Part shown: one piece after another, positions 2,788-31,406 of the stretch
Layout: each line of letters starts with the position of its first letter
Numbering within the stretch: the stretch's first letter is position 1
Assembly: GCA_002728755.1 (NCBI GenBank)
Contig: PBVT01000123.1
Span: 538-64,537 of the forward strand
Direction: 5' to 3'
Length of the DNA stretch: 64,000 nucleotides
DNA from: Myxococcales bacterium
GTDB lineage: Bacteria; Myxococcota_A; UBA9042; UBA3505
Notes under the pieces: model-generated
What the model was told of the DNA's origin: nothing
Database searches by the model: none
Seen by the model: only the letters and a program-made list of their open reading frames with translations
Made by a program: the position numbers and the translations under genes

Positions 2788-2841
2788 CGACTACCTCGCC
2801 CTTGGACCGGTGGAAAATCTGATGTGGACGGACCCCCGATA

Positions 2842-3130: not shown

Positions 3131-3168
3131 GGGTATTCCCGCGGTGCTAAGACGCCCTTCTGCATTGA

Positions 3169-3981
3169 GTGCCACAGATGATCTACCAAAAGACCAAAAA
3201 CGATATCGATCACATCCGAAAGGCGGGGCGAATTCTGGCGCGAGCCTTGAATCGAACCCTGCAGGAAGTGAAGCCCGGCATAACAACACGACAGCTGGAC
3301 TTTATCGCCGAAGAGTGGATTCGCGGTGAAGGGGGCCTCCCCACATTCAAAGGTATCTATGGAGATCCAAGCCGTGGCATTCCACCCTTTCCGGGCACCC
3401 TGTGTATCTCCGTAAACGAAGAGGTTGTCCACGGTATCCCTGGAATTCGAGTTCTCCAGGAAGGTGACATTATCTCTCTGGATTGCGGCGTAACGATCAA
3501 GGCCAATGGACGCCAGTATGTCGCGGACTCCGCGGTTACCGTTGGGGTGGGTACCATCTCCGACGAGGACACATATCTACTCGAGCTCACCGATACGTCC
3601 CTCGCGAAGGGGATCGAACAGACACGTATAGGAAACCGCCTCTACGATATCGGTGCCGCTATCGAAGCCCATATCAAACCATCCGGCTACGGTATTGTTC
3701 GCGAATATTTCGGCCATGGAGTGGGCTATCAACTCCACGAGGATCCGATGGTGCCAAATTTTGGCCGGGCCGGAACCGGTCCACGCCTGAAAAATGGCTG
3801 GGTGCTCGCCCTGGAACCGATGGTGAATCTGGGGGACGATGCCGTCCATACCCTTGACGACGCATGGACTGTCGTCACATCCGATGGGGCCCGGTCGGCA
3901 CATTTTGAGCATACGGTTGCGATCACGGAGGACGGCCCAGAGATCCTCACGCGACGTGATCTCCCCGAGGTACAGGTTTGA
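3169..3981 (+). CDS. map: Methionine aminopeptidase, type I
   Basis: A 270-aa protein with the MetAP-I metal-ligand context (DCG...D...HGVGY.HE...LEPM...FEHTV). Its N-terminus (KTKNDIDHIRKAGRILA) is typical of MetAP. Confidence 0.93.
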   Translation: MPQMIYQKTKNDIDHIRKAGRILARALNRTLQEVKPGITTRQLDFIAEEWIRGEGGLPTFKGIYGDPSRGIPPFPGTLCISVNEEVVHGIPGIRVLQEGDIISLDCGVTIKANGRQYVADSAVTVGVGTISDEDTYLLELTDTSLAKGIEQTRIGNRLYDIGAAIEAHIKPSGYGIVREYFGHGVGYQLHEDPMVPNFGRAGTGPRLKNGWVLALEPMVNLGDDAVHTLDDAWTVVTSDGARSAHFEHTVAITEDGPEILTRRDLPEVQV

Positions 3982-7900: not shown

Positions 7901-7927
7901 AGTGTTCGCGATTCCGTGGGAAGAAGA

Positions 7928-9055
7928 ATGTCTTGGACAGGACCCGAGACAATGACCACTCCAATCCGAATCTTAGTTCCAGGCGCCGGAGGACCCGGCA
8001 CGATCAATCTGTGTCGTTCTCTTCGACGAGCACCGGAACCCGTCCATCTCATCGGCACCGACTGTGATCGCGCCTTTGCGACTCTGGCACAGACCGATGA
8101 AATTCATCTGGTCCCTCCGGCCCGCGACGAGAACGCCTATCTGGAACGTATACAAGAGCTGGTACATAGCCGAAACGTGGACGTGATCCTCCCCAATAAC
8201 AGTATTGAGGTGCGCGCATTAGCCAAGAACCGCGACGATATCTCGGCGGCTATGCTCGTTCCACCGGTCGCGTTCCTGGATCTCGCTAATAGCAAGTGGG
8301 AGTCCTATCAGCGCTGGCGAGACCAGAATCTACCGGTCCCCCAGACGTGGTTATTGGAGCAACCGGACGATGTTCACCAGGCTTTCGAAGAGCTCAAGAC
8401 TCGTCCCGTATGGGTTCGAGGTGCCGGTATACCCGGCCGAGGTATTGGTGTCGCATCGCTTCCGTGTAAGAACTCGGAAGAAGCCCGTGTCTGGGTGGAC
8501 TACTGGAGTGGCTGGGGTGGGATGATCGCATCTGAGTTTCTGCCGGGAGCCAACCTGACCTGGATCGGACTCTTCCAAAACGGCGAACTCATCACCGGCC
8601 AGGGCCGAGAACGGGATCGCTATGTAATTCCTCATGTGTCTCCATCGGGGATCACCGGCGCTCCCGCCATCAGTCATACGGTACATCGCGAGGATATCGC
8701 TGAGCTCGGACTCAAAGCGGCGCGATGTCTCGATCCAAACGTACATGGGGTCGTCTTTGTTGACTTCAAATGCGACGAAAAGGATCAGCCGTACATCACA
8801 GAGCTGAACGCCTGTCGCTTTGGAACCACCCATTTCTTCTACACAGCGGCCGGCCTGAATCTTCCATGGCTTTCCGTCCTGCTCGCTCTGAACAGACCTC
8901 TTCCCGAGACGCCAAAAACGAATCCGCTACCCGACAATCTCTACTGGATACGAACTCTTGACGCCGGTCCTGTAATGATATCGGGTACCGACCTTGACGC
9001 TGGAAACCTCGATGCGGGAATACGCTTTAATGTAAATGGGACTCCGCTCCCCTAA
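7928..9055 (+). CDS. ATP-grasp domain protein, a ligase of unknown substrate
   Basis: N-terminus IRILVPGAGGPGTINLCRSL. The central region (WVRGAGIPGRGIGVAS..., ASEFLPG, ITELNACRFG) fits an ATP-grasp fold. The start is chosen from the GTG at 7916, the ATG at 7928 and the ATG at 7952. Confidence 0.7.
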   Translation: MSWTGPETMTTPIRILVPGAGGPGTINLCRSLRRAPEPVHLIGTDCDRAFATLAQTDEIHLVPPARDENAYLERIQELVHSRNVDVILPNNSIEVRALAKNRDDISAAMLVPPVAFLDLANSKWESYQRWRDQNLPVPQTWLLEQPDDVHQAFEELKTRPVWVRGAGIPGRGIGVASLPCKNSEEARVWVDYWSGWGGMIASEFLPGANLTWIGLFQNGELITGQGRERDRYVIPHVSPSGITGAPAISHTVHREDIAELGLKAARCLDPNVHGVVFVDFKCDEKDQPYITELNACRFGTTHFFYTAAGLNLPWLSVLLALNRPLPETPKTNPLPDNLYWIRTLDAGPVMISGTDLDAGNLDAGIRFNVNGTPLP

Positions 9056-9154
9056 CCGTTGGTTTCCATACAGAATTATCTGCGAGTTATTCCCCCCTTC
9101 TCCTAGCGTGAACCTTGACATCACAGACGAAGAAGAATATTAGAGCCACCGCCT

Positions 9155-9238
9155 GCGAGAATGGTGGAATTGGTAGACACGCAAGGCTAAGGACCTTGTG
9201 GCCGCAAGGCTGTGAGGGTTCGAGTCCCTCTTCTCGCA
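9155..9238 (+). tRNA. tRNA-Leu (type II, long variable arm) whose anticodon loop CUAAGGA reads as AAG (A34)
   Basis: Cloverleaf drawn by hand. Acceptor stem GCGAGAA pairs with TTCTCGC and the discriminator is A. D arm GTG-GAATTGGTAGA-CAC, anticodon stem CAAGG/CCTTG, variable arm of about 15 nt, T arm GAGGG-TTCGAGT-CCCTC. It aligns position-for-position with E. coli tRNA-Leu isoacceptors. No CCA is encoded. Confidence 0.85.
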
Positions 9239-9242
9239 CTGC

Positions 9243-9286
9243 AATACCGCGAGCAGTTCTTCTGCTCGCGGTATTGTTCGTTTTGG
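9243..9286 (+). terminator. Rho-independent terminator immediately after the tRNA-Leu
   Basis: A perfect 15-bp inverted repeat, CAATACCGCGAGCAG-ttctt-CTGCTCGCGGTATTG, followed by TTCGTTTTGG. Confidence 0.6.
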
Positions 9287-9651
9287 GATGCGCAGATTCC
9301 CCAGAGAAAGCGGTCCATGCCCTGATACAGGCCGCCAATTCCAACGACACCAAAAAGCTGCAGGAGCGGGTCAGTCAGCGCTCCCTTCCCTTGCTCAATC
9401 TGGCTCTGGAATATGGCACAACCACATCAGCCATTGCTCTTCCGGCCAACACCAGCCCCTATCGCATACGAGAGGTACTGCCCGCAGGTAAGGGCATCGT
9501 CTATGCGGTTGTAGAGCAGGATTCCGACGTCTATCGTCTGCCCTTGGTTTTTGAACGGGGCCGATGGCGAATCGAGCTGCTCCTCATGGGCGACGATGCA
9601 AACTACCAGCCCCCGCCACATTCGCCCCCGACCGCCCCCCCTCTACCATAG
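9262..9651 (+). CDS. Putative small lipoprotein of about 125-135 aa. The start codon is unresolved because no in-frame ATG or GTG follows the tRNA.
   Basis: The frame of track ORF 9115..9651 encodes a textbook lipobox (PRAVLLLAVLFVLGC-ADSPEK) and a protein-like mature part. The upstream part of that ORF overlaps the tRNA and cannot be coding. Candidate starts are the CTG at 9262, the TTG at 9274, or a non-canonical ATA at 9244 that would give MPRAVLLLAVLFVLGC. The signal peptide is encoded by the terminator hairpin itself. Confidence 0.35.
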   Translation: MLAVLFVLGCADSPEKAVHALIQAANSNDTKKLQERVSQRSLPLLNLALEYGTTTSAIALPANTSPYRIREVLPAGKGIVYAVVEQDSDVYRLPLVFERGRWRIELLLMGDDANYQPPPHSPPTAPPLP

Positions 9652-9686
9652 TGCGAGACGATCCGGTGTTCGAAGACGAACAAAAA

Positions 9687-10586
9687 ATGCAGCGTCTGAG
9701 TGTGGGCGTTCTGATCATGGGTGTGGCCATTGTCAGCACCGCTGCCGTCTTGATTCGACTCGCGGAGGCCCCCAAGCTCAGCGTCGCGTTCTGGCGTATC
9801 ACCATCGCTGCATTGCTGCTCCTACCTGTATGGCTACGTCCCCAAAGACGGGCCGCGATACAGGCATTAAGTGGGCAGCAGAAGTGGTCTCTTATCGGAG
9901 CAGGTTTTTTCCTCGGAGTGCATTTCGCCACCTGGATCTTAAGCCTCGCCTATACCAGCGTGGCGGCCTCCGTCCTCCTGGTTACCACGAACCCTGTCTG
10001 GGTAGGCCTTATGAGCCCCTGGATTCTGGGCGAACGCCTTCCTCGCCGCACCTGGTTTGGAATTATCGTGGCCTTGAGCGGAACTGCCATCGTAGGAATG
10101 GACTTCCAGTCGGGTGATTTTTCGAACCCCGCGCTGGGCAATATGTTGGCTCTATGCGGCGCAATCGCCATGAGCTGCTATCTATTATTTGGGCGTAGGG
10201 TACGGCCGTCCTTAGACATATGGACCTACACATCGGCAACACTTCTGGTCGCCTGGTGTGTTCTGGCCGGTACGATCCTCGCGACGCAGACCCCAATCCA
10301 TGGTTTCCCGCGCCAGGATTGGTTGGTATTTACGGCACTGGCTCTGGGCCCACAGCTCCTCGGCCATGGCTCCCTCTCCTGGGTACTGCGCTATATCCGA
10401 GCCGAAATGGTTGCAGTGGCCCTTTTGGCGGAACCCATTGGTTCCGCGGTGCTGGCGTGGGTGATCTTATCGGAGATCCCGGGTCAGGGCGTCTGGTTTG
10501 GTGGCCCCATCCTTATTCTTGGGATCGGAGTGGTGGTCCTGGGTAAACGTCCAAAAGGCCTGGAAAAATCAGGCCGGGCGTCATAA
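9687..10586 (+). CDS. EamA-family (DMT superfamily) transporter
   Basis: About ten predicted TM helices and two EamA-like halves. The ATG at 9687 (MQRLSVGVLIMGVAIV) sits just before the first TM helix. The upstream part of the track ORF, from 9564, is a chance extension. Confidence 0.85.
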   Translation: MQRLSVGVLIMGVAIVSTAAVLIRLAEAPKLSVAFWRITIAALLLLPVWLRPQRRAAIQALSGQQKWSLIGAGFFLGVHFATWILSLAYTSVAASVLLVTTNPVWVGLMSPWILGERLPRRTWFGIIVALSGTAIVGMDFQSGDFSNPALGNMLALCGAIAMSCYLLFGRRVRPSLDIWTYTSATLLVAWCVLAGTILATQTPIHGFPRQDWLVFTALALGPQLLGHGSLSWVLRYIRAEMVAVALLAEPIGSAVLAWVILSEIPGQGVWFGGPILILGIGVVVLGKRPKGLEKSGRAS

Positions 10587-15261: not shown

Positions 15262-15870
15262 CTATCCTTCGGTCTCGTCCTCGGTTTCGTCCGATTCTGT
15301 TCCTTCGTCGGCTGGCGTTGGATCCCCATGTTCGGGCGAGTCGGTACCGGTATCAGCAGGCGTTGGATCACCATGGCCAGCAGGATTGGAGCTTCCGTCG
15401 GCCGGGGTAGGATCACCGTGGCCAGCCGGCATCTCATCGGCCGGTGTTGGATCGCCATGCCCTGGCGCATCATCACCAGGTAGCGGAACCGCCGGAGTGG
15501 GATCGCCGTGATCTAACGGGTTCTCGTCCGCCGGTGTGGGATCGCCATGACCGTCGGCTCCGTTGGCATAGTAATCCGCACAGGCATCGATGATCTCCTG
15601 TGGGATCTCCACACCATATTGGAAGCTATTCTGTAGCCAGAAAAGACAGAGATCCTGTTGTGACCAGGAGGTCTCAACCCCGTTGGAGAGCCGGACCATA
15701 ATCATCACATCGTTTGTCTCGGTCGATAGGGAATAGTCGGTGATAAAGCCCACCGATTCATTCGGATTGACCTGTGCGCCATCCTCAAAGAGGCCAGAAT
15801 CAGATACCGGCTCACAGGCCTGGAGAACCAGGGCCAACAGCAGCAGAATCGTATGGAACCGAGCTATCAT
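15262..15870 (-). CDS. Lipoprotein with six C-terminal HGDPTPAD repeats, a possible metal-binding protein
   Basis: Lipobox [19 protein letters not shown]. Six copies of (G/D/E)HGDPTPA(D/V) between residues 108 and 188, followed by an acidic tail. Its ATG overlaps the stop of the upstream sigma-54 activator (ATGA). Confidence 0.7.
   Translation of the reverse strand: MIARFHTILLLLALVLQACEPVSDSGLFEDGAQVNPNESVGFITDYSLSTETNDVMIMVRLSNGVETSWSQQDLCLFWLQNSFQYGVEIPQEIIDACADYYANGADGHGDPTPADENPLDHGDPTPAVPLPGDDAPGHGDPTPADEMPAGHGDPTPADGSSNPAGHGDPTPADTGTDSPEHGDPTPADEGTESDETEDETEG
15307..15549 (-). repeat. In-frame tandem repeat encoding six HGDPTPAD units
   Basis: Repeated ggatc(a/g)cc(a/g)tg(g/a)cc-containing units are visible in the DNA. 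The repeat lies within the lipoprotein gene. Confidence 0.8.
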
Positions 15871-18800
15871 TTCAACCCGTACTCCTTCACTTTACGAGAC
15901 AGTATCGTACGTGTCATTCCCAAAAGACGGGCCGCCGCCGCAATATTCCCATCCGATTGCTTCATCGCCTTGGCAATATATTCCAACTCTATCTGCCGTT
16001 GGAGGCGCTTGAGCGAGAAGCCGGGTGTCAGCTGCCAATCATCCAACGATACGGGGCGGTCCTCGGTAGAGTTCAAGCCCTTCGCTTCACCGGGGCCAAA
16101 TAGGCGCACCAGATCGGCCGTAATACGACCGTTCTCGGAGAGGTGGATCAGTCGCTCCAGAACATTTCGTAGTTCCCGCGTATTGCCCGGCCAATCGTAG
16201 GTCTCCAGAACATCAAACGCGTCCGAATCGATTTCTACATCCTCTGCAAAGGGAAGCTCTGCAATAATCGAATGGGCGAGCGCCCGAAGATCGGAGATTC
16301 GATTGCGTAGAGACGGTAAACCCAGGGTCATGCCCGAAATACGATAATAGAGGTCGAGGCGGAATCGGCCCTGATCAACCAGCTCCTTCAGATTTCGGTT
16401 CGTGGCAAGCACAACGCGCGCATCGGAACGAACAATCTCCGTGCCACCGACACGATGGAAGGTCCCGTCTTGAAGCACGCGGAGCAAGGCCACCTGCGCA
16501 CCCATAGAAAGATCACCAATCTCGTCGAGGAATAATGTACCACCATTGGCCAGCTCGAATTTTCCTGGCTTCTTGCGGTAGGCACCCGTAAACGCACCTC
16601 GTTCATGCCCGAAGAGCTCGGACAACAATAAGGTTTCGGCGAGTGCGGCCACATTCACACGTACCATCGGACCATGGCTTCGGTTCGACCAGGAATGAAT
16701 AACCTCGGCCACCAGCTCTTTCCCGGTACCACTTTCCCCCTCAAGAAGAACCGGTGCATCGGACGATGCATACCGCTCGGCCAACGCGAGGGTGCGAAGT
16801 AAGGCAGGGTGTTGCCCTGCTATTCGGCCAGGGGTTCGGGACGGTTTTGTTACGATATCAGGCTGAGTCGGCTGTTCCATTCGTTTCTCCTGCCTCTGTG
16901 CAAACCCTTCAAGCTTCTTGAACCACGGTCGTCCAATGAAGCCATCACGGTCCGAATCCAATACCGACTCCCCTAACTCAATAATGATCGTTCGCGCCTC
17001 ACGTAAGACACGATTGGCCTGCCCACTCTCCCCCTGGGAACGGTACGCAGCAGACAAGATGATACGGGCTTCCCAACGTAGCGCCGCGTCACCGGTCTGA
17101 TCCGACTGCTCAATCAGAGGTGCAAGAATAGCAATCGCACGCTCTGACTCTGTCACCGCTAGACTCCAGGCCCGTGTCCAATCCCAGGCCTGGCGTGTAG
17201 AGAGTCCGATCTCCGCAGGCGCTTGGCCCGGATCGTTCAGCGTTCCACCAGCCAGTAGCGTGTTTTGCATTCGTAGAATTTGAATCCGGGCATCTCGCTC
17301 CGCTTCCGGCTCCACACATAGAGTCAGCGCACGATCCAGATGTCCGTCGGCTGCGACGTACTGTTCATCCATCATGAACGCACGGGCTCGCCGAATAATC
17401 GCATCGATTTCAAGTTTCGTATGCCCCGCCTGTTTCGCAGATTCTTCCGCCAGAGCACAGAGTCGCCGAGCCGAGGCTGCACGGCCAATGGTCGTCTGTA
17501 CGTCGGCCAGAGCGAGAAGATTACGAATCCGCCCATGGAAAGACGGCAGAACATCCAGTTGCTGCACGCTATCTTTGAAGGCTTCCTCTGCGACTCCATA
17601 GTGGCCCAGATACTCACGGGCGATAGCCATATTCGCCAAAGTGATCGCGCGTTCCAATCCCAGCCCGGCCTGCTCAAAAAGCAGCGAGACGGCCTCAAAT
17701 TCCGAGGCTGCATCCTCGTAGCGCCCCTCGGAAAGCAAAGCAATCGCCATATTTCCGCGAGTACGTGCCGACCCCACCTGAAGGTGCTCGCGTCCAAGAG
17801 ATTGCAGATCCTCTCGTGCCGATTCGATCCGGCCCAGAAGAAGATTACAGCGAGAGCGTACCAGGCACGCGGTCGATTCCGAGTCGCCCACCTCCGCTAA
17901 TAACTCCAAAGCCTTCTCGGCTTCTCCGTCCGCATAGAGGATATGTGCCTTCAGACAGGTTCCGGCCTCGCCATCAACCGGGTCTTGAGCGAGATGCCGA
18001 AGCAGATCATCGGCCTGGTTCTCAATTCCTTCTTGCACCAGTGCAGCGAAGCTCTGTCGTACGGTATCGGAGTCGATCGCCGGGACAGGTGTTAGAACTT
18101 CAATGGCTTCGTTATTTCGCCCCTGATCAAGCAGAGTACGCGCCAATTCCCATACGACCTCGTCTGCTCCAGAGCCGATAGAGGCTAGTTGAATCGCAGC
18201 CTCATGACGCCATTGTGTTCGTAATTGGCGAACCGTGTCGGGAACAAGGCCCCATAAGGATCCGGAGGCTACGAATCGAAGAGGCGCGAGTCGTGCCAGA
18301 TCACATGCGCTGTCTGGATCGCGGGTGAATCGATAATGGGTGGCCAGAAGCTCGACAAACGCCGTTTGGCGGTCCGTCGCTCCACCCCCAGCGGGAAACG
18401 GAAGCCTGGTTTGCACATAATCAGAATCCAGCTCCACAACGTCTGCGTCGGCGAGTTCGTTCAATGCCCGTATTACATTGGTCTGCGACAACATCGTCAG
18501 CCCCGGAAGCGCGTCCCGGTGCACGAGTCGAGCCAATGTATCGAGCGCGAACCAGCATTGCTGTGCATCGTCGGACAGGTCCGGTACGATCAACCGTGAA
18601 TACGCCATCGGATTACGCCGGACAGGATCCGGAACCGCCATCGCATGCGGGGCTTCAATTCGTGGGACATCGGTCTCCTGACCATCTGGAATAAGGAGCA
18701 GGAGTCTGCCCTTGGGCTTGCGATGAGAAAACCGTGAGAGCTGATGGTTTTGCCAGGGGTTCGCGAGGGATTCTGCCAATTCCACAGCGTCCGAATAGCG

Positions 18801-19208
18801 GCGCAGGTCGAGCACCAACAACATCGGGGTCTGTTCCATTACGGCATACAACATACGAGACAGGAGATGGAGAACACCGGCCCGTCTTCGTGGTGCGACT
18901 CGCCCCTGGGAAGGATAGCCATCCAGGCTACGCTTCAACGACGTTCCCAGCTCGCGGGCTTCCGTCGAGATGTGTGCATGACGGCGGTCATCGAGGACCA
19001 CATCGACCAGGTCCTTAAGAAGGCGTGGCATGCTCTCACCAAAGGTGAGGCGCACAACTGGGCGTGTCTGGTCTCGAGCCAACACATCGACCATTCCATA
19101 TCCCCCCGAAGGAGACATACAGGCGACAGCATGCAAACCAGCCTGCATCCACTCATTGAGTGTAAGTCGGCTAGAGACGTTCGCGTTTTGTGGCTGGGGC
19201 CGATTCAT
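15867..19208 (-). CDS. Sigma-54-dependent transcriptional activator, 1113 aa, with a ~780-aa N-terminal sensory region containing TPR-like helical repeats
   Basis: The C-terminal third carries the sigma-54 AAA+ interaction domain ([38 protein letters not shown]) and a Fis-type HTH ([23 protein letters not shown]). The N-terminal region is helical and TPR-like (e.g. [19 protein letters not shown]) with no receiver domain. The first ATG was used as the start; an internal start is possible. Confidence 0.88.
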
Positions 19209-20534: not shown

Positions 20535-21992
20535 ATGTCCGAACGGCTCGATCTGCTCAGTGAAATTGCCCAGGAAGCGCGTAAGCTCGGCTGTACAGAA
20601 GCCGACCTACGCTACGTAGACCGTCGACTCGAATGGGTCACAGTACGGAACGGCCGCTTGCAGACCTGTTCCGATCTATCCGATGCGGGTGTCGGTGTTC
20701 GTGTTCGTATCGGCCAGGCCACCGGCTACGCGGGCTGCCCAAGCTCCGATCCCAGGGCCCTACGAGAAGGGCTCGCACGAGCGGTCGCTATGGCGAAAGC
20801 CAGTAATACGGTGACGTACGAAACAATGGAGTTCGCGCCGCCCCCGGCCGAGCAGGGCGTCTATATCACCCCCACCCCAGGTGGTGATCCCTTCCAGGTG
20901 CCCCTTGACCAACGTATCGATCGTCTATCCCAGCTGGCTAGCGCACTGAAAACAGACGATCGAATTCAGGTCGCAAACGCGAGCCAGGTGATGATGCGCC
21001 GCCATACACTTCTGGCGACCATGCATGGCTCACGAATCGACCAGACCATCACCTTGAACGGTGGCGGCATGAGCGCCATCGCCGAAGACAACGGCCAGGT
21101 TCAACAACGCAGTTATCCCAAAGATTTCGAAGGAAATGTGCTCCAGGGCGGTGAAGAGGTTTTTGATTCTCTCGATCTACCGGCCCATGTGGATCGCATT
21201 CGTGAAGAAGCTATCGCCCTTTGCCATGCACCACCATGCCCCGAGATGCGCACCGATCTGGTCATCGACACCGACCAGCTTGGACTACAGATTCATGAAT
21301 CCTGTGGCCATCCCACAGAGGCGGACCGGGCACTGCGGGAGGAGCTCTCTCTGGCGGGATCCTCATTCCTCACCCCCGATCTCCTCCAGAAGGAATTCAA
21401 GTACGGTAGCCCCGAGGTGTCCCTGGTTGCGGACTCCACAACTCCTCTGGGACCTGGCACCTTTGGTTGGGATGACGAAGGCGTACCCGCAGGGCAAGTC
21501 GACCTGGTTCGTGACGGTATCTTCCGTGGCTATCTTACGAGTCGAGCCACATCCAAGCGTCTGGGTTGCGATCCCATTGGGGCATGCCGTGCCGAGTCCT
21601 GGCATTCGGAGCCCATCGTACGAATGGTGAATATCAACCTGGAACCCGGATCGGGAGGCTCCCTGGACGATCTCATCGCCGGCACCGATCAGGGACTCCT
21701 TATCCAGACCAATCGTTCCTGGTCGATCGATGACCATCGGCTCAACTTTCAATTCGGCTGCGAGCTCGCCCGAGAGATCAAGGGTGGAAAACTCGGTCAA
21801 CTCTACCGAAACCCGGTCTACACGGGGATCACCCCTGAGTTCTGGGGTAGCTGTGACGCGATCGGTGGTCTACAGGACTGGCGTATGTGGGGTTGGTTCT
21901 TCTGCGGAAAAGGAGATCCCCCCCAGATTATGCATGTCGGCCATGGAACCGCACCGGCTCGATTCCGCAATGTGCAGGTGCGTGCGTCATGA
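20535..21992 (+). CDS. tldD: TldD/PmbA-family metalloprotease (peptidase U62)
   Basis: HESCGHPTEADR (HExxxH-like TldD motif) and a GxC...GDP C-terminus. Paired with a paralogue through an ATGA overlap. Confidence 0.88.
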   Translation: MSERLDLLSEIAQEARKLGCTEADLRYVDRRLEWVTVRNGRLQTCSDLSDAGVGVRVRIGQATGYAGCPSSDPRALREGLARAVAMAKASNTVTYETMEFAPPPAEQGVYITPTPGGDPFQVPLDQRIDRLSQLASALKTDDRIQVANASQVMMRRHTLLATMHGSRIDQTITLNGGGMSAIAEDNGQVQQRSYPKDFEGNVLQGGEEVFDSLDLPAHVDRIREEAIALCHAPPCPEMRTDLVIDTDQLGLQIHESCGHPTEADRALREELSLAGSSFLTPDLLQKEFKYGSPEVSLVADSTTPLGPGTFGWDDEGVPAGQVDLVRDGIFRGYLTSRATSKRLGCDPIGACRAESWHSEPIVRMVNINLEPGSGGSLDDLIAGTDQGLLIQTNRSWSIDDHRLNFQFGCELAREIKGGKLGQLYRNPVYTGITPEFWGSCDAIGGLQDWRMWGWFFCGKGDPPQIMHVGHGTAPARFRNVQVRAS

Positions 21993-23371
21993 CAATTCCC
22001 GTTGTGGATAAAGCCGAAAAGGCCCTACTAGCACTCCAGCCCGATCATTTCTCGTTCTCGGTAAAAGATCTGCGTGGTGAAGTGGTTCGTTATGCGAATA
22101 ACGTGGTCACACAGAGTTCATCGGTGGCAAACCTCCAACTCATTGTTCGCATCTGGGCTGGCGGTGGCGTAGCAGACATTACATTACAGGGTGCAGGGCT
22201 GGAAGATCTGGATAACCAGCTGCGCCACACGATGCAACGGGCGGTGGCCGTCGGACGTACCGGTCTCGGGGAAGACACACCTCCCGACGCCAGCACCGAG
22301 GCGACAGATCTGGCTACGGATTATTCCGATCCGGAGATCCTGGAATGCCTCCGCTCTCCGGGCTACATCACAGATGGTCTGGTCCCCTTCTTTGCTCGTG
22401 CACAGAGTGACCGTGTGGAGTTGGCGGGCCGCCTGGAGCACCGCTCTACGAAGCTCTTTCTGGTCAACAGCAAAGGGCTACGAAAAGACTTCTCCCAGAC
22501 CTGCGCTGAAGCCCAGGTCATCGCGGTCGATGAACATGACGATTATATCTCTGGCTATAGCGCTGGTATCGGCCATAGACGTAGCCATCTTGCGTTGACA
22601 GAGCTCGCGGATCGGGCCGTACAAAAATGTGTACGAGCGCGAACATATGTCGAGGTGGATAAGGGTGCCTACGATGTAATTCTGGAGCCAGAGGCCGTCA
22701 CCGAGGTGCTCGATTGGCTGGGCTCCATCGGGCTGACGGGAAAAAGCCTGGAGGATCGAAGCTCCTTCATGACGGGCCGGGTCGGTGAAACCGTGATGAG
22801 CCCGAATATCACCCTCTCCGACGACGCCTTATGCGACCATGGCCTGGGCCTACCCCAGCCCTTCGATCTGGAAGGGACTCCCAAGCAGCGGGTGGTCTTC
22901 GTAGAGAATGGTGTCGCGAAAGGCGTCGCCTGGGACCGAAATACGGCTCGTCGCGCTGGTTGCCAGAGCACGGGCCATGCCAATAATGGAGACTTCGCTG
23001 GAAACACAGGGCCGACCGTGAACCATCTCGTTCTGGACGGAGGAAACCATACCGAGCAAGACCTCCTCGATCGGGTCGAACGTGGTCTATGGATTACACG
23101 ATTCCATTATGTGAATGGGCTCCTGGATCCCCCCAAAGGCATGATGACCGGGCTTACCCGCGATGGCACATTCCTCATCGAAAACGGAACCCTCGGCCCC
23201 AGTGTGGGTATGCTTCGTTTCACGGATAGTATGATCGAGGCCTTCCAACGCGTGGACGCGCTGACCCGTGAACAACGAGCCGTACGCACAGGATGGAGCG
23301 TACCAAGCGCTGCCATCGTACCGACGGTCTTAATTCGAGGGCTGCAATTTACAGGTAATGCCCGCGGTTAA
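21989..23371 (+). CDS. pmbA: TldD/PmbA-family protein, second subunit (PmbA/TldE-like)
   Basis: Paralogous fold lacking the HExxxH motif, with the characteristic C-terminus (GLWITRFHYVNG...G). Start taken at MTIPVVDKAEKAL, overlapping the tldD stop. Confidence 0.85.
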   Translation: MTIPVVDKAEKALLALQPDHFSFSVKDLRGEVVRYANNVVTQSSSVANLQLIVRIWAGGGVADITLQGAGLEDLDNQLRHTMQRAVAVGRTGLGEDTPPDASTEATDLATDYSDPEILECLRSPGYITDGLVPFFARAQSDRVELAGRLEHRSTKLFLVNSKGLRKDFSQTCAEAQVIAVDEHDDYISGYSAGIGHRRSHLALTELADRAVQKCVRARTYVEVDKGAYDVILEPEAVTEVLDWLGSIGLTGKSLEDRSSFMTGRVGETVMSPNITLSDDALCDHGLGLPQPFDLEGTPKQRVVFVENGVAKGVAWDRNTARRAGCQSTGHANNGDFAGNTGPTVNHLVLDGGNHTEQDLLDRVERGLWITRFHYVNGLLDPPKGMMTGLTRDGTFLIENGTLGPSVGMLRFTDSMIEAFQRVDALTREQRAVRTGWSVPSAAIVPTVLIRGLQFTGNARG

Positions 23372-24153
23372 TCGGTTGCGTTCCCACCGAAGATCGCTTC
23401 GAAAGGTTCGCTGTTCCCATCCATATGTTCGGCTGCAGCTCGTACCCAATCATGGATAAAAGAGCCGGACTTCAGCCCATCTCGGACCGCCTTTGGTAAT
23501 AGAGGAACAAGAGGGCAAGCCAACGACGGTGAGGTGTACGGATTGTAGGCGAGCGCCTCGATCACCGACGGCCGATTCCCCCAGGCACCGTTCTGAAAGA
23601 CGACTTCGAGCACACCGACAGGTACGGGGCGTCGACTGACGATACGAAGAACGTCGGACTCTAATATCCTTGGATTTCGAAGAAGCATCGCGATGACGCT
23701 CGGCTCGGTATCCAGGATAAGCTTCATTCGCATATCCCGATCGGCGGTTCTCGCCAGAGATTTACGACGCCCCAGAGTGATCTCATCCAATTCCGGAAGA
23801 TTATACGCCACTTTGGTACCGATGGACTTCGACTGCTCAATAAAGGCCGTTCGGAGAACTGGATTCCCACTCTGGACAGCGCATATATACGCCTCTTCCC
23901 GGATAGAATAGCTCAACCCCTCGATATCGGAGAGCAGACGAAGGCAGTCCAGATAGACTTCACGTCCTGGTCTCTGATCGCGGCGCTCAAAGGCCAGAAC
24001 GAACAAGGCCACAAACTGCTTGGGGGTCTTCTGCACCAGGTCGAATAGGAACCCCCGCCGAAGCTGCTGTTGTTCCAGCCCACGCAGACGACGAAACAGC
24101 CGATCGACTTCGGTCTGCTCTGCAACTTCTGGTGTATGGGTGTCGGTCTTCAT
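23368..24153 (-). CDS. Hypothetical helical-repeat (HEAT/ARM-like) protein, 261 aa
   Basis: The last gene of the minus-strand cluster. Its start overlaps the stop of the upstream lipoprotein gene. Repetitive helical segments (LLRNPRILESDVLRIVSRRPVPVGVLEVV). Confidence 0.55.
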   Translation of the reverse strand: MKTDTHTPEVAEQTEVDRLFRRLRGLEQQQLRRGFLFDLVQKTPKQFVALFVLAFERRDQRPGREVYLDCLRLLSDIEGLSYSIREEAYICAVQSGNPVLRTAFIEQSKSIGTKVAYNLPELDEITLGRRKSLARTADRDMRMKLILDTEPSVIAMLLRNPRILESDVLRIVSRRPVPVGVLEVVFQNGAWGNRPSVIEALAYNPYTSPSLACPLVPLLPKAVRDGLKSGSFIHDWVRAAAEHMDGNSEPFEAIFGGNATD

Positions 24154-24485
24154 TATCGTTTGGACGTATTCGCCATCTCGTTACAAGCCGCCACCGCTTT
24201 TAGATCCTGGGCCGCCATCACACATGTAGCCATTTTCGGGGTATGAAACGGCTCCCATTTGTTCGTGCACATCTCAACGCACTTGGCCGTTTCGGATTGG
24301 ATCATAGCTTTATCCGACTCCGGCACCTCGCCGGATCGTAAGACCAGATCAGCCGTATGATTACAGACGGTCGTGCAGTCCGTACTCTTCTCGACAGATA
24401 TCTTCGTTTTCGTATGCCCACATCCCAGGCCCAATACAAGACCTGTTGCCAATAGTGCAAGGTGGATACCTGTTCGGTTCAACAC
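24153..24485 (-). CDS. Small Cys-rich lipoprotein of about 110 aa
   Basis: A GTG start at 24485 gives MLNRTGIHLALLATGLVLGLGC-GHTK, a textbook lipobox. The mature part has 8 Cys. The MRKYRMHH extension in the track ORF is treated as spurious. Confidence 0.6.
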   Translation of the reverse strand: MLNRTGIHLALLATGLVLGLGCGHTKTKISVEKSTDCTTVCNHTADLVLRSGEVPESDKAMIQSETAKCVEMCTNKWEPFHTPKMATCVMAAQDLKAVAACNEMANTSKR

Positions 24486-24581
24486 ATCCTCTCCCGTGTC
24501 TTTCGCCAGTAGTGCTGGTCCATGATGAACTGCATTATGATGCATCCTGTATTTCCTCACAACGCAACGAATACCGAGCCT

Positions 24582-26582
24582 TCACCATAGATAGTCTTTG
24601 ACGATGGAGCGTTTGTCGGGCCCGGAAAGAATATGCACCACGCGCAGCTTTTTCAGGGCCAGGGTCGACAGCGATCCCAGAGGAATATATGTGATCTTTT
24701 TTCCCCGCCGGCTTGCATAGGTATGCATCGCGGACGAGGGAGGCTTCTCGGCCACATGTACGACGATGGTGTCGACGCTATAGTCCACCGCCGCCATCAA
24801 AAGCACATCGGGCTTGGACTGTGCCAATCGATAATCCGGATCGGCCCAGACATCAAAGAGTCGCATTCGTGGCCAGCTGAGCATGAACCCGCCATAGGTC
24901 GCACGCATAATGCCGGGCCCAACGATCTGATTCATCGGATTGGTCGTATAGAAGGCCATATCCGATTCCTGATCGTGCTCTCCCAGCCAGGTCATCATAT
25001 GAGGATACCGGGTACCTTCAACATCCGGATCAAAGATCACAACGACCGACCCCGCTTCTCCTTTAACCCGTCCGCGCTCCTGCACATAGATCCGACCGTC
25101 GTGCACATTTCGCATCGTCTCACGGATATCGATTCCGTCGAGCATGCTGGCGCTGAAGGGTTCCGAACGGCTTCGTTCGGCGGAAAGGATCGACACGGCC
25201 TTCTTTTGTAGAAAACGACCGTAATCCTCCAACACAATATCCTCCGGTGGATAGGAGACAATATGGTCGGAATTAAAGCCTCTTAGCCATTCATCTGGGT
25301 TGTCGGTCTCGGGCCGCTCTCGAACCGGTATCCGAACCGGACGCTTTTTGACACGAAAGAAGCGACGTCGAAAGCGAACCTTTCGTGTCCCCAGATCCAG
25401 CTCATCGCCGTCTATACGAACCACAGGAGCGTCCGACTCCTCTCCCTGCCAGGGATATGCAGACGAAGCAGCGAAGACCTCCCAGGCCAGGTTGTCGTCG
25501 GCTACCCCCCGAGCCGAAACAACCCACTCGTATAATCCGCCGAGCAGTCGGCCCTGCACCCGCGCCTGACGGCGGCTATAGTCGAAAAACAAGCGCTTTT
25601 GCCAACCTGCCACCGTTTCAAGGGTCTGGTTTTGATAGGAATGCGTGGCAATATGCCAGACGGCCCGTGCTACTGCCGACCGGTCCAGATACGAAAAGCC
25701 CGGCGCCAGATCCCGGACCGAATGGAAACAGGCATAGGCCACAGCCGCCTTTCGACGCTCCCTGGGGGTTGCGTCTGCGCCCCGGCTGATCAGTTGAAGA
25801 TGTCCCCTCTGTAGAGAGATCCGTTGGGAAGACGCTTCATCAATCTCCGGGGCCTCGGATGGAACCCCTTGATGGAGGGTTTCGTAACAAGCGTGTACCA
25901 GAGGAGGATCCGAAAGAAGCGCTGTAAGACTATCGGGATGGACATGCCGGACCTCGATCTGCGTACGGCGCACTCGAGCCAGAGGCTGGGCAACATCCGA
26001 ATTGATGTCTTCCGCCAGTCGGTGGGCGTGGGCGGCCCCGACCAAGACCAGAACAGGCCCAGTTGTATGCTTCTTGCGAATCGTTTGAATATGGTACGCC
26101 ATACCCTGTTCGCGGCGGCGATCATCGGCGCTGGCACCACTGTCACCACAAAGCTCTGCGATAGTGCTAAGGAAGTCGGCTGGGCCAAGAGTCCATATGG
26201 CGTGCGTATCGGGTACCGGATCCACATGGCGTTCCACATAGCGAATATCGGGATCGATACAGAACATTGGTCGATCGTTTTCCTGTGCCCAACGTGCTGC
26301 AACAGCAAACGGCTCCGCCGGTGTAACGGTCCATACAAGAGCCTCCTCTCCCTCTGGAACGGAGAGAATTAAAGAGATCTCGGGGAGACGTCGAACCGCT
26401 CGTTGCACATGTTTTTCAAAGGTGGTTGGCAGCTCCAAAGCTATCGCGCAGGGCTGCAGTGTCTCTATAACCGCGCGGACCACGGCCCCCATATCGGCGC
26501 TATCATGGACCACTGGGAGTAACCGGACGCCATCCGCAACCTCCGGAGCCAACTTCCCATAGTCCACTGTGGCCGGAACCAT
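24582..26582 (-). CDS. Large uncharacterised protein (666 aa) whose N-terminus resembles the TraB/GumN/Tiki-like domain. It is the partner of the adjacent MoxR-like ATPase.
   Basis: The N-terminus VRLLPVVHDSADMGAVVRAVIETLQPCAIALELP and the later VLVLVGAAHAHRL resemble the GTxH...E...GxxH blocks of the TraB/PrgY/GumN (Tiki) superfamily. No VWA/MIDAS motif was seen. There is a 2-nt gap to the upstream ATPase stop. Confidence 0.7.
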   Translation of the reverse strand: MVPATVDYGKLAPEVADGVRLLPVVHDSADMGAVVRAVIETLQPCAIALELPTTFEKHVQRAVRRLPEISLILSVPEGEEALVWTVTPAEPFAVAARWAQENDRPMFCIDPDIRYVERHVDPVPDTHAIWTLGPADFLSTIAELCGDSGASADDRRREQGMAYHIQTIRKKHTTGPVLVLVGAAHAHRLAEDINSDVAQPLARVRRTQIEVRHVHPDSLTALLSDPPLVHACYETLHQGVPSEAPEIDEASSQRISLQRGHLQLISRGADATPRERRKAAVAYACFHSVRDLAPGFSYLDRSAVARAVWHIATHSYQNQTLETVAGWQKRLFFDYSRRQARVQGRLLGGLYEWVVSARGVADDNLAWEVFAASSAYPWQGEESDAPVVRIDGDELDLGTRKVRFRRRFFRVKKRPVRIPVRERPETDNPDEWLRGFNSDHIVSYPPEDIVLEDYGRFLQKKAVSILSAERSRSEPFSASMLDGIDIRETMRNVHDGRIYVQERGRVKGEAGSVVVIFDPDVEGTRYPHMMTWLGEHDQESDMAFYTTNPMNQIVGPGIMRATYGGFMLSWPRMRLFDVWADPDYRLAQSKPDVLLMAAVDYSVDTIVVHVAEKPPSSAMHTYASRRGKKITYIPLGSLSTLALKKLRVVHILSGPDKRSIVKDYLW

Positions 26583-26584
26583 TC

Positions 26585-27418
26585 TTAGTCCTCCGGCCCC
26601 ACAACACCAATATCATCGGCCGCCAGAGATAAGCGCAGGGCCAGCTGAAACGCTTCACCGGGCGACGCACTCTCTTTTTCGTGAATCAGCTTCATGGCGT
26701 AGCGAACAATGTTAATCCCATCCCGTACCGTATAGCGCAGATCGGCCTCATGAGACGCACTTAAGAACTTCATAACGTAATCGACCACCTCGTTGTCCGC
26801 CCCGGGAACCTGGGATTCGAGAATGGCCCGCTCTTCGTCTGAATCGGGGAAATCCACATAAATCTGTGGCATCAACCGAGAGTGGATGTACTCCGGCACT
26901 TCATAGGTCGACGAATCTTCGTTCATGGTCGTAACGAACCGGAACTCAGGATGCGCGGTGATTTTGATCCCCGCGATCAGACTCTCCACATAGCGCCGGT
27001 AATCGAGAAGAGGAGCCAGACTGGCCCAGGACTTCTCACTCATTCGGTTTCCTTCGTCGAGAATACAGACGCCGCCCTGTACCATGGCCGACACCAACGG
27101 TGACGCCATATACCGAACACTTCCGTCGGGCCCCAGAACAGGAGCAACGATCAGATCTTCGGGGCGAGTATCCATCGTAGCCTGCATAATATAGACATCC
27201 AGGCCCAACTTTGCGGCCGCTGCATAGGCCAGAGTCGTCTTCCCAACGCCGGGTTTTCCCAACAAGCGCGGGTTCAAGGGCAGGTCCTGTTCTCCAATGA
27301 CCGCCCAGGCCGCCAATAATTGCACCAGAACCTCCCGTTGCCCCACCCATTGGGTGTCCAGAACAACTGGCTGGGTCAAATGCAGGTCGACCCCTTCGAT
27401 CGCAACACTTCGTTTCAA
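26585..27418 (-). CDS. MoxR-like AAA+ ATPase (AAA_3/AAA_5 type)
   Basis: Walker A GKPGVGKTTLA, Walker B / sensor context VCILDEGNRMSEKSWASLAPLLD (compare DEINRA...LLEAM of MoxR), and a C-terminal lid. 277 aa. Confidence 0.85.
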   Translation of the reverse strand: MKRSVAIEGVDLHLTQPVVLDTQWVGQREVLVQLLAAWAVIGEQDLPLNPRLLGKPGVGKTTLAYAAAAKLGLDVYIMQATMDTRPEDLIVAPVLGPDGSVRYMASPLVSAMVQGGVCILDEGNRMSEKSWASLAPLLDYRRYVESLIAGIKITAHPEFRFVTTMNEDSSTYEVPEYIHSRLMPQIYVDFPDSDEERAILESQVPGADNEVVDYVMKFLSASHEADLRYTVRDGINIVRYAMKLIHEKESASPGEAFQLALRLSLAADDIGVVGPED

Positions 27419-27455: not shown

Positions 27456-28331
27456 TCAACCCCGAATCCGTAGACGAATGAGTTCACCTGCGACACGGAG
27501 GATACGACGTACATTGGTGACCTTGGATTGTCCACGCTGTCGGGGTATCGCCGTAATCTCTACCACCCTGTGCTCAACACCACGATCCATGAGGCGAAAG
27601 GGAAGTTCCAGGTTCGCCACGAAAGTCGACGTCTTCGTGGGAGTCTTCTCCACCAGCTCACGACGTACAATCATGGTTCCATTAATACGCGGGTCGTGTC
27701 GAAACATCAGCCGAACCATCGTCTGGAAACCGGCGGAGAGGAATTTCCTATGGGCACCATCCTCTCGCTCCTCATACACGCTCAGCACCATGTCTACATC
27801 GGCCAGATGCGGTAGGAATCGTTCCAATGTCTTGGGCCCAACCTGTCCATCACCAGGCAACTGGGTCACGAAGCAGCCCGTTGCCGCCGCATATCCAGTC
27901 CGAACGGTCGCCCCCATCCCCTTATTGGACTCGTGATGAACCACACGAACGCGCGCGTCGCTTTTCCCCAACGCATCGGCGACATCACCGGTGTCGTCGG
28001 TGGACCCGTCATTCACAATAATCAGCTCACCAAATTCTCCAAACGGGCCCGTACGGTGCTCCAGGAGATCCGGGCAGCAGGCGTAGTCACTCGCCTTTAA
28101 TTCATCGAACCAGCTAAGAACTGCCGACACCTGACTGGAAAGATTCCCTTCCTCGTTATATGCCAGCACAACAACCGATAAGAAGGGAGCCGCTACTCGG
28201 GATGAACTATCATCGGTTGTTTGTTGTTTCTGTATGTTTCCCAAAGTGAATCGTATCCCAAAGGTTCGCGCCAGGCCCAAGAACACAGTAAAATCCCGAT
28301 ATGTGCAAACCATTTTCCACGTATAGACCAA
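27456..28331 (-). CDS. Family 2 glycosyltransferase, dolichyl-phosphate / polyprenyl-phosphate sugar transferase-like
   Basis: LSVVVLAYNEEGNL, IVNDGSTDDT and the DxD-region motifs of GT2. The exact start is uncertain; the first ATG was used. Confidence 0.82.
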   Translation of the reverse strand: MVYTWKMVCTYRDFTVFLGLARTFGIRFTLGNIQKQQTTDDSSSRVAAPFLSVVVLAYNEEGNLSSQVSAVLSWFDELKASDYACCPDLLEHRTGPFGEFGELIIVNDGSTDDTGDVADALGKSDARVRVVHHESNKGMGATVRTGYAAATGCFVTQLPGDGQVGPKTLERFLPHLADVDMVLSVYEEREDGAHRKFLSAGFQTMVRLMFRHDPRINGTMIVRRELVEKTPTKTSTFVANLELPFRLMDRGVEHRVVEITAIPRQRGQSKVTNVRRILRVAGELIRLRIRG

Positions 28332-29078: not shown

Positions 29079-31406
29079 TTATTTCGCGCCAGCATCCTTG
29101 GCCTTTCGAATCCAGAAGTCCGGGATCTTCCATTGCGGCTGTAGCTTCTTGGCTCGCTGGAACTCCCGTAGCGCTTCCTGCGGCTTATTCGAATTCAAGA
29201 GTTTCGTACCACGACGCAGTGCGGCTCGTGATTCGACCTTTGGATCCGATGCCGGTTTTTCTGCGGCCTTCTTCTTGGCACGCTTCTTTTTCTTGGCCTT
29301 CTTTCGCGCTTCAGCACGAGCTTTCCGCTTTCGCTCTTTTGCCTGCCGACGCTTCTCGACCTGCTCCTCGTATTTTTCTTCCGCGCTCTTGATCTTACGA
29401 CCGAGATCCGCGTCATCACTACCCAGTTTGGCAGCCTTCAAATACAGGTCCAACGCTTTCTTATATTTGGATTTCCGGTAGGCGGCATTCCCTGCGTCCA
29501 CAGCGCTGCGGGCCTCCTCAAGAGCTTTGAGTCGCTCCTTCTCTGCCTTTACAGCTTCCGGATCACGGTAATCCTCATCATCGGTATCTTCCGCTGTGGT
29601 ATCGGCCGTCGTCGCCACATCACCCGCGGTAGCAACGACCTCCGCAGGAGCCTGCGTTTCCGCCGTATCGGCTGGCGCAGACGCCGTAGCCTCTACATCG
29701 GTAGATGAGGAAGCAACGTCGGCCACAACCGGATTATCAGAGGGCGGTTCCTCAACGACGGCCTTCTTCTTGCCCGTATCGCGCAGGAACAAGAATACAA
29801 CGGCTGCGAGTACGACGGCGACACCCGCAACAGCCATCATAAACCGCTTCGAGTCGCTCTTTACCCGGAAGTGGAAGCTCTGTTCCCCGTCATCATCGTC
29901 CCCGTCCGCGTGGTCAAACCAGGCAGAGAGGTCCTCGGACGGCGCTCGCTCAGAATCGGCAACAGGTTCCGGGTCCGGCTCGGGGCCAAAGCCATCCTTT
30001 CCATATATTTCCTCAGACGTTCCGGCTTCCTCCAGGCTCTCTGCATCCATCTCAAAGACTGGCATGGACTCGGGCGAGTCGGCCGGGATCCGGTATTGGT
30101 CAGTCTCCTGGTATTCTTTTTCCGGCGCAAACCACTCTGAAGGATCCTCATCGGGTGCGAGTCCCGGTTCGGCCTCTGGTTCCGGTTCGGGTTCCGGTTC
30201 GGGCTCGGGTTCCGGTTCGGGCTCGGGTTCCGGTTCGGGCTCGGGTTCCGGCTCGGGCTCGGGTTCCGGTTCGGGCTCGGGTTCCGGTTCGGGCTCGGGT
30301 TCCGGCTCGGGTTCGGGCTCGGGCTCCGGGTCAAATCCAAGCTCAGAATCCTCGGTATCATCAAAAGATTCGGGCTCAGGTGTAACACTGGTTCCCGTAT
30401 ATACCGCCGTCTCAATCGTCGGTTCCGCGGCCGGCTCTTCATAGGCTGGCTCGGGCTCTTCGATCGCTGCGGGCCCCGGGGGCATTCCCTGTGGCGTCCA
30501 GTCAAAATGACCGAGGTGGGACATTCGGAACGACTCCAGTCGTTCGAGGAGAGCTTCCGGCGACGCCATCCTTCGCGCTGGGGTCTTCGCCAGTAGTTCT
30601 GTAACCAGATCGTCAACGTCACTTACACCCGTTAAACCAGGTTTCGCGAGACGAAGGGGTAACGGCTTCTCATAGATCTGCCGTTTCATCGTTGTTCGCG
30701 GATTACTCGAGGAAAAGGGTGCTTTTCCTGTGAGCATGGTCAACAGCACGATCCCCAGACTGTAGAGATCCGACTGGATATTTCCCTCTTTGCCAGAGCA
30801 GAGCTCCGGCGACATGAACTCAGGACGACCCCAGAAGATTGGTCCTCGAAAACCAGTTGTATATCGGGGGAAGACATGGCGTCCCCCATAGCGAAGAATT
30901 CGTACGGATGTACCAGAACCGGAATCAGCCACCCAGATCGAATCGGTAGAAAGGTCATGATGGAAGACATCTTCGGCACCAGCGCTAACGAGCGCAAAGG
31001 TCACTTGATGAAGAATATCCAGGGCCGATTCAAGGCTTAGAGTACCCTTCTCGCGTATTGCCACAGACAAAGGAGTGAACCCCTCCAGCAACCATACGAG
31101 AACCACTTTACCGTCTTCGATGAGCAGATCGGCGAGAATGGGCACAGCGGCCACATCAGCACCAACAAGAGCACCTACATCATCTCGAACGGCTTGCAGC
31201 TCTTCTCCACCGGGTATCTCCGACACCGTCCAGACTTCTAGCAATACATTAGCATCCGCCTCTGTATCGAAAGCCGTCGCCGTATAGCCATAGCCGTCTT
31301 CAAACAGCGTACGTTGGTTCTGGAAACGTTCATCCATAGAGTTTCTTCCTATTGCCCGGTTCTCTAAGTCGATTGGATTGTAAGCCACACTACTGGCAAA
31401 CGGCAA
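29079..31406 (-). CDS. Membrane-anchored protein-kinase-like protein, probably a pseudokinase, with a (PE)27 spacer, one TM helix and a Lys-rich TPR-like C-terminal region
   Basis: Kinase subdomains are recognisable but degenerate: the G-loop [15 protein letters not shown] in place of [15 protein letters not shown] in place of HRDLKxxN, and no clean DFG. SPE and [15 protein letters not shown] are retained. After the kinase-like domain come (PE)x27, the TM helix [20 protein letters not shown], and a KR-rich tail with TPR-like helices. Confidence 0.8.
30165..30330 (-). repeat. Perfect hexanucleotide tandem repeat (GGYTCS)n encoding about 27 Pro-Glu dipeptides
   Basis: The ggttccggttcgggctcg... 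units can be read directly in the sequence. The plus-strand track ORF 29596..30444 (a GSGSGS protein) is its antisense shadow. Confidence 0.9.

Follow-up and report, generated by a model that had tools for sequence, protein, structure and literature searches.

MoxR proteins have been divided into seven subfamilies, among them CGN, YehL, APE2220, PA2707, APE0892, MRP, and RavA (PMC3893208), and they generally serve as maturation chaperones alongside a VWA cofactor, with which they co-occur (PMC3893208; PMC7159879). Here, we describe a gene pair, consisting of a MoxR-class AAA+ ATPase gene and the gene for a 666-aa partner protein, in a stretch of 64,000 nucleotides (hereafter the window; contig PBVT01000123.1 of assembly GCA_002728755.1, positions 538 to 64,537, forward strand) from a Myxococcales metagenome-assembled genome (MAG). 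The closest described relative of this pair is the yehL-yehM-yehP-yehQ (yehLMPQ) operon of Escherichia coli, itself uncharacterized, in which a MoxR-class AAA_5 ATPase gene is likewise followed by the gene for a large protein, and the two large proteins are homologous over their N-terminal ~340 residues, which comprise the TraB/ChaN-like domain and helices. The same two-gene layout of a small ATPase (~270 aa) and a large cofactor is seen in CbbQ-CbbO and NorQ-NorD.

The initial annotation of the window described four tightly packed, co-directional minus-strand genes, encoding the ATPase, the 666-aa protein, a Cys-rich lipoprotein, and a 261-aa protein, with a GT2 glycosyltransferase gene upstream. 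All of these open reading frames (ORFs) were found where it had placed them in the ORF list, with 2 nt between the ATPase stop codon and the start of the 666-aa gene, 37 nt between the GT2 gene and the ATPase gene, and a stop and a start codon sharing 1 nt at the junction of the 135-aa lipoprotein ORF and the 261-aa ORF. We find that the ATPase and its partner make up a self-contained, translationally coupled module, widespread in Asgard archaea and many bacterial phyla, and that the functional unit almost certainly comprises these two genes rather than four. The module very probably lacks a VWA component: the initial annotation noted no VWA partner here, and we found none in the 666-aa protein itself, in the window within ~15 kb, or among the recurrent neighbors of 80 related loci. 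Overall, the pair seems best explained as a self-contained MoxR-class ATPase with a dedicated cofactor that replaces the VWA/MIDAS adaptor, and this is the reading that we favor.

Conservation of the ATPase–partner pair

The loci were sampled as 80 genome regions with 10-kb flanks, drawn from Acidobacteriota/Thermoanaerobaculia, Myxococcota, Geobacterales, and Desulfobacterales, including cultured Geomonas species and Pelotalea chapellei, and were searched by tblastn with ten window proteins. The partner gene was immediately preceded by a same-strand ATPase gene in 71 of the 74 loci having enough upstream DNA, with an extrapolated gap of −65 to +198 nt and an overlap in many cases. Across related loci, identity ranged from 53 to 76% for the ATPase and from 25 to 56% for the partner, the median identity to the window being 67% for the former versus 49% for the latter. 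When all 1259 ORFs of the 80 loci were clustered all against all, two widespread clusters emerged, and these were the ATPase and the partner; every other ORF cluster was confined to at most 13 loci, so that no third conserved partner was found. A conserved third partner was rejected on this basis, the recurrent lineage-specific neighbors being housekeeping genes. Recurrent local neighbors were Tex, ferrochelatase, SelB, MacB/ABC components, a thioredoxin-like protein, and a methyltransferase. Since the additional genes of the initial annotation do not co-occur with the pair, the conserved entity consists of two genes.

The 666-aa protein, which is identical to the product of locus tag CMH54_15740 (Myxococcales MAG), belongs to a large family. 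A word-indexed search returned 549 scored matches; leaving aside one 89% identical relative and the window protein itself, the best 120 were 52-59% identical over their full length. A profile search of 1.84 billion cluster representatives (50% identity) gave 1358 matches at E ≤ 1e-3 and 352 at E ≤ 1e-30, and the partner is carried by at least 578 species genomes.

The same pairing of ATPase and partner was found in Promethearchaeota (Asgard; loci L084, L085, and L091), where it adjoins ribosomal-protein and RNA-polymerase genes and where the L091 ATPase was detected by tblastn; in Planctomycetota (L086), adjoining maf and mutS; and in two further lineages (L083 and L088). Compared with the window, identity in Asgard and Planctomycetota is 53-57% for the ATPase but only 25-28% for the partner (~25-27% in the Asgard loci). 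Occurrence of the pair in Asgard archaea could reflect old inheritance or inter-domain transfer. In these Promethearchaeota MAGs, the pair occupies positions 4790-8124 (L084), 2502-5836 (L085), and 5502-9136 (L091), and in L084 and L085, it lies between genes for ribosomal proteins S13/S4/S11 and those for RNA polymerase. Neochlamydia sp. S13 also holds the pair, on pS13, under the RefSeq labels “AAA family ATPase” and “hypothetical protein.” This “plasmid” of 231 kb (L093) gave the sole plasmid-database match to the partner; with the housekeeping genes ttcA, surE, and queG, as well as a group II intron and an AbiEi antitoxin, it looks chromosome-like and unlike a mobile plasmid.

Domain architecture of the ATPase and its partner

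The assignment of the first gene product as a MoxR-like AAA+ ATPase was borne out by its match to Pfam AAA_5 (64.6 bits against a cut-off of 22; E 1.3e-17). In 56 orthologues, including those of Asgard and Planctomycetota, 35% of the ATPase positions were at least 95% conserved, as were the Walker A (GKPGVGKT) and Walker B (ILDEGNR) motifs. The closest solved relatives were midasin AAA domains, CbbQ (1e-9), and NorQ (1e-8), with the MRP-type MoxR structure 2r44 more distant (E 2.9e-4) and RavA not among the solved-structure matches at E ≤ 0.01. Against GvpN (TIGR02640), the ATPase scored 33 bits, where the cut-off is 266.8, which places it below NCBIfam equivalog membership of the CGN (CbbQ/GvpN/NorQ) group. 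Orthology with YehL was rejected, given the lack of specific similarity (BLASTP E 0.25).

For the partner, no solved-structure relatives were detected by sequence or profile searches of the Protein Data Bank (PDB); its structure was modeled with AlphaFold2 (AF2). An AF2 model built with 40 close homologues was confident for the N-terminal ~400 residues only, the C-terminal half being low, whereas the model from 136 aligned sequences, with 23-42% identical representatives among them, reached a predicted local distance difference test (pLDDT) of 91.4 and a predicted template-modeling score (pTM) of 0.81. The motifs PVVHDS, IALELP, and VGAAHAHRL, on which a TraB/GumN/Tiki-like fold had been proposed, are present in the translation, and structure matches of the AF2 model support this fold for residues ~14-240. 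In the structure-match table, the values were 10.2 for a TraB family protein (8bqs_DQ), 9.2 for HopBA1, 8.5 for ChaN, 8.5 and 7.6 for EreA-like “succinoglycan biosynthesis proteins,” 7.6 for PMT toxin, 7.2 for EreC, and 6.4 for RRSP. The N-terminus of the partner thus has the fold of the TraB/PrgY/GumN/TIKI-ChaN-EreA superfamily. Within it, a His/Glu/Arg/His signature was seen in the 136 sequences, with H26 kept in 117, E50 and R157 in 119 each, and H185 in 111; in the YehM family, this signature (H...E...RE..M...GxxH) is invariant. These residues presumably correspond to the Tiki/Ere catalytic residues, to judge by motif order rather than by structural superposition.

The initial annotation had regarded the remaining ~450 residues as unassignable. 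This no longer applies up to residue ~356, where DUF5682 and YehM align, but it still describes the C-terminal domain, for which a Foldseek search of the PDB gave a best E of 0.2 and no convincing match. Partner residues 17-356 aligned with YehM residues 2-320 at 96.3% hhalign probability (E 1.6e-9), and the AF2 model places helices at residues 273-288, 301-320, 326-342, 350-360, and 363-373. Among 70 diverse relatives, weak Pfam matches were to DUF5682 (25), TraB_PrgY_gumN (7), and DUF5694 (4); the best DUF5682 match had an E of 4.9e-8, and those inspected covered only the N-terminal part of the model. The window protein itself gave no match to DUF5682 (PF18934) at E ≤ 1, and full-length membership of this family was rejected because the N-terminal half alone aligns. 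The linker that follows has a core with pLDDT below 50 (residues 412-421) and is basic across the 136 family members, with a median K+R fraction of 0.21 versus 0.13 for the whole proteins. In the C-terminal domain, G483, E535, H650, and R658 are invariant, and S443, E447, D448, E452, D482, E488, T489, E539, and S540 are nearly so. Signal peptides and transmembrane segments are absent from both the ATPase and the partner, whose one hydrophobic stretch is core secondary structure in the AF2 model; the pair is probably cytoplasmic.

Proposed mechanism and alternative readings

By analogy with CbbQ-CbbO, NorQ-NorD, and RavA-ViaA, a hexameric ATPase ring would bind the cofactor, and ATP hydrolysis would remodel either the cofactor or a client bound to it. 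This cofactor, of ~650-750 residues, comprises a TraB/Tiki/ChaN/EreA-type domain, a helical region, a basic flexible linker, and a C-terminal alpha/beta domain. The part that cooperates with the ATPase is probably the N-terminal module, since no other element is in common with YehL-YehM, where a MoxR ATPase is also encoded directly upstream. The TraB/Tiki-like domain may supply a hydrolytic (peptidase/esterase-type) or a ligand-binding step; the retention of the His/Glu/Arg/His set favors a hydrolytic step over pure binding, and catalytic activity of the domain, as judged from these residues, seems to us possible rather than probable. The acidic/His/Arg cluster of the C-terminal domain may replace VWA/MIDAS in client binding, and the basic linker, with its disordered core, is a candidate site for the ATPase pore to engage or for contact with nucleic acid. 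Housekeeping neighborhoods, together with the very high conservation of the ATPase, suggest a conserved cytoplasmic maturation or remodeling task rather than defense, and, by analogy with described MoxR systems, we lean toward a MoxR-type remodeling role for the pair.

Several observations weigh against this reading. Adjacency is broken in three loci (L042, L064, and L072): in L042, the ATPase and partner genes are separated by a 4.7-kb insertion, while in L064 and L072, as also in L092, no ATPase was found in the upstream DNA available. H26, E50, R157/E158, and H185 are kept in 81-88% of the 136 sequences and are not invariant, so that some family members may be noncatalytic, and ChaN shows that a TraB-type fold can serve purely for binding. 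The neighborhood search for VWA genes spans 20-kb loci, and an unlinked VWA gene elsewhere in these genomes is possible. Moreover, a single 998-aa ORF in L010 (8987-11983) that seemingly joins the ATPase and the partner lends no support to their interaction since, compared with sister locus L011, it results from a 1-nt frameshift near the ATPase C-terminus. A Rosetta-stone fusion was accordingly rejected, the frameshift probably being a long-read assembly error or a pseudogenizing mutation rather than a true fusion. The L042 insertion (5386-9966, in a Geobacteraceae MAG), with genes for an NTP_transf_8 nucleotidyltransferase and for a SNF2-family helicase of 1166 aa, may be an inserted defense or mobile cassette.

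Two alternatives concern the composition of the module. Were a divergent VWA/MIDAS domain hidden in the C-terminal half of the 666-aa protein, this would be an ordinary MoxR-VWA pair, and that domain is indeed alpha/beta, with many invariant acidic, Ser, and Thr residues (DGID.RET, GEH.QESD) that could bind metal. However, no VWA, integrin I-domain, CbbO, or NorD chains occurred in the top 60 structure matches, and VWA Pfam families had no match at E ≤ 0.1 in the 70 diverse relatives; with no VWA by fold, by Pfam, or in the neighborhoods, this reading is essentially refuted, and we give it next to no credence. We think just as little of an envelope-related system of four genes (five with the GT2 gene), in which the ATPase and partner would work with the Cys-rich lipoprotein and the 261-aa protein. 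It draws on the co-directional, tightly packed arrangement in the window, with the last two genes overlapping, and on the retention of that arrangement in L001. Yet L001 is a sister genome, 89% identical, and because of this close relationship, its synteny is of little weight. It is also the only one of the 80 loci to keep all four genes, or to have matches to the lipoprotein, 261-aa protein, GT2 glycosyltransferase, and all other window neighbors beside the pair; the other 79 retain the pair at most, and the claim of a four-gene system thus did not hold up. In addition, the 261-aa protein is rare, with 8 matches among 5.8 billion proteins, itself included, and the two homologues examined adjoin not the pair but an ECF sigma factor and an FHA/sigma-54 activator. 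The lipoprotein would be exported, whereas the pair carries no export or membrane signal, and a promoter-like site separates the 666-aa gene from the probable start of the lipoprotein. The lack of co-occurrence outside L001 largely, if not essentially, refutes the four-gene system.

The other two alternatives retain the pair and assign it a different task. Were it a metal- or heme-cofactor insertion chaperone, heme or iron would bind to the ChaN-like domain, and insertion into a target enzyme would be powered by the ATPase, with NorQ/NorD (FeB) and CoxD (CuMoS cluster) as models. The similarity of the partner to ChaN, the CGN-like character of the ATPase, and the presence of ferrochelatase upstream of the pair in Geomonas speak for such a role, which we nevertheless consider unlikely: the ferrochelatase adjacency is limited to a single genus-level clade (9 loci), the conserved neighbors include no candidate target enzyme, and the His/Glu/Arg/His set is of the TraB/Tiki/Ere hydrolase type and presumably does not correspond to the ChaN heme ligands. 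An anti-phage or conflict system centered on MoxR, with the partner as sensor or effector, is more improbable by a wide measure. MoxR-centered conflict systems do exist (PMC7159879), the ATPase gave weak PADLOC matches to TRIP13 and IetA, and the fold family of the partner includes the toxins RRSP, PMT, and HopBA1. Nevertheless, the partner had no PADLOC match, and those of the ATPase were to generic AAA only; the neighbors are housekeeping genes (ribosomal proteins, RNA polymerase, MutS, Maf, ArgRS, NadA/B, Tex, and CTP synthase); phage matches were nil, and the single plasmid match was on a chromosome-like replicon. Furthermore, the ATPase remains 53-76% identical across phyla and domains, whereas defense genes usually diversify fast. 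Defense was therefore rejected as unsupported by PADLOC, phage, or plasmid searches.

A wider version of the favored reading, which we consider possible but less likely than not, is that the pair represents an ancient VWA-independent MoxR branch. This branch, spanning at least six bacterial phyla as well as Asgard archaea, would use the ATPase to power a hydrolase of the Tiki/TraB type joined to a C-terminal domain not seen before. If so, the pair might be an ATP-gated site-specific protease or a remodeler acting on a universal cytoplasmic client, for example a ribonucleoprotein, and the YehM-type N-terminal module would serve generally for MoxR docking or as an effector, accounting also for the orphan yehLMPQ operon of E. 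coli.

Neighboring genes and comparison with known systems

The coordinates of the pair, of the domains of the partner, and of the adjacent genes are collected in Table 1.

Table 1. Positions in the window of the ATPase–partner pair, the domains of the partner, and the adjacent genes
Feature	Position	Strand	Remarks
MoxR-class AAA+ ATPase, 277 aa	26585..27418	-	First gene of the pair; Pfam AAA_5
666-aa partner (stop codon included in position)	24582..26582	-	Second gene of the pair; without Pfam or NCBIfam family
Partner residues ~14-240, TraB/PrgY/GumN/Tiki-ChaN-EreA-type alpha/beta domain	25863..26543	-	
Partner residues ~241-375, helical middle region	25458..25862	-	Common with DUF5682 to ~356
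Partner residues ~376-440, basic linker	25263..25457	-	Disordered core (RKVRFRRRFFRVKKRPVRIPVR)
Partner residues ~441-666, C-terminal alpha/beta domain	24585..25262	-	Most conserved part
Cys-rich secreted/lipoprotein-like ORF, 135 aa	24153..24560	-	Lineage-specific neighbor, outside the conserved module
261-aa protein	23368..24153	-	Lineage-specific neighbor, outside the conserved module
GT2 glycosyltransferase	27456..28331	-	Lineage-specific upstream neighbor, outside the conserved module; Pfam Glycos_transf_2 5.9e-19

The lipoprotein, 261-aa, and GT2 genes are local bystanders of the pair. The 666-aa, 135-aa, and 261-aa proteins had no Pfam match, and NCBIfam and PADLOC added nothing specific for the window genes. 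The HEAT-like character given to the 261-aa protein in the initial annotation is putative. The small Cys-rich protein, credited with 8 Cys in the initial annotation, has 7 by our count, and its N-terminal hydrophobic segment ends in LGLGC. Translation probably begins inside this ORF, at a GTG/TTG preceded by a GGAGAGG box, which would yield the signal-peptide-like sequence MNRTGIHLALLATGLVLGLGC; with this start, the true gap to the 666-aa gene is ~100 nt, not 21. A promoter-like match lies in the gap upstream of this ORF (24562-24534), although such a match is weak evidence.

Further genes accompany the ATPase in particular lineages. Two proteins of ~374 and ~208 aa, each with paired CxxC motifs that suggest a zinc ribbon, are encoded on the same strand just upstream of the ATPase in L004 (7299-9028), with equivalents in L005, L008, L014, L028, and L038. 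These loci are from Acidobacteriota/Thermoanaerobaculia, apart from one Polyangiaceae locus (L014), in which one gene intervenes. Neither protein had a Pfam match, and they may be lineage-specific accessories or mere synteny. Ferrochelatase (hemH) lies directly upstream of the ATPase in L043, L048, L049 (7729-8685), and L057, that is, in Geomonas and close relatives.

Elsewhere in the window, a minus-strand gene at 29079-31406 encodes a 775-aa protein with a partial Pkinase domain, in which the catalytic loop reads HHDLSTDS instead of HRDLKxxN; the protein, which may be a pseudokinase, also has ~45 consecutive Glu-Pro repeats, an acidic tract, a hydrophobic segment, a Lys-rich tail, and TPR-like repeats. 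Two PmbA/TldD-family metallopeptidase genes at 20535-23371 on the plus strand are convergent to the 261-aa gene, and since their ORFs overlap by ~100 nt as listed, the second start is probably further downstream. A 1113-aa sigma-54-dependent activator, with TPR repeats in its long N-terminal region, is encoded at 15867-19208 on the minus strand; in other genomes, homologues of the 261-aa protein adjoin FHA/sigma-54 activators and ECF sigma factors.

Although MoxR ATPases have been described as VWA/MIDAS-dependent, the pair represents a large, deeply conserved clade that breaks this rule, and its cofactor joins a putative hydrolase domain of the Tiki/TraB type to a domain having no solved counterpart. 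Uncharacterized MoxR systems are common, which tempers this interest; the cultured hosts Geomonas and Pelotalea chapellei, on the other hand, make the pair experimentally tractable. We found no literature on the ATPase–partner family or on DUF5682, YehM and YehL appearing only in gene and subfamily lists, and no paper linking MoxR with TraB/Tiki-type proteins. Within the TraB/PrgY/GumN/TIKI-ChaN-erythromycin esterase superfamily, no member has been described with an AAA+ ATPase partner, as far as we found, and the present partner differs from this superfamily in having ~430 extra residues and in not reaching the Pfam threshold. McrB-McrC offers a possible analogy, as an AAA_5-type ring with a single dedicated, non-VWA partner encoded immediately downstream. 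In that system, however, the motor McrB is a GTPase carrying a DNA-binding domain and its partner McrC a nuclease, and unlike McrC, the window partner showed no similarity to nucleases that could be detected by sequence or by fold.

The resemblance to CbbQ-CbbO and NorQ-NorD is one of layout: the CbbO and NorD cofactors end in a VWA/MIDAS domain, of which the window partner has none, and no Rubisco or NO-reductase genes lie near the window pair. The E. coli yehLMPQ operon differs in also encoding a VWA_CoxE protein (YehP) and a SWIM protein (YehQ), both absent beside the pair here and in the related loci. YehL is not specifically related to the window ATPase and belongs to a different ATPase clade. 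The C-terminal halves of YehM and the partner are unrelated, the alignment ending at residue 356, and YehM itself matches PF18934 with 330.8 bits over model positions 1-695, whereas the window protein is below threshold. What the two systems do share is a MoxR ATPase paired with the N-terminal module, and this module offers a handle on the uncharacterized yehLMPQ operon.

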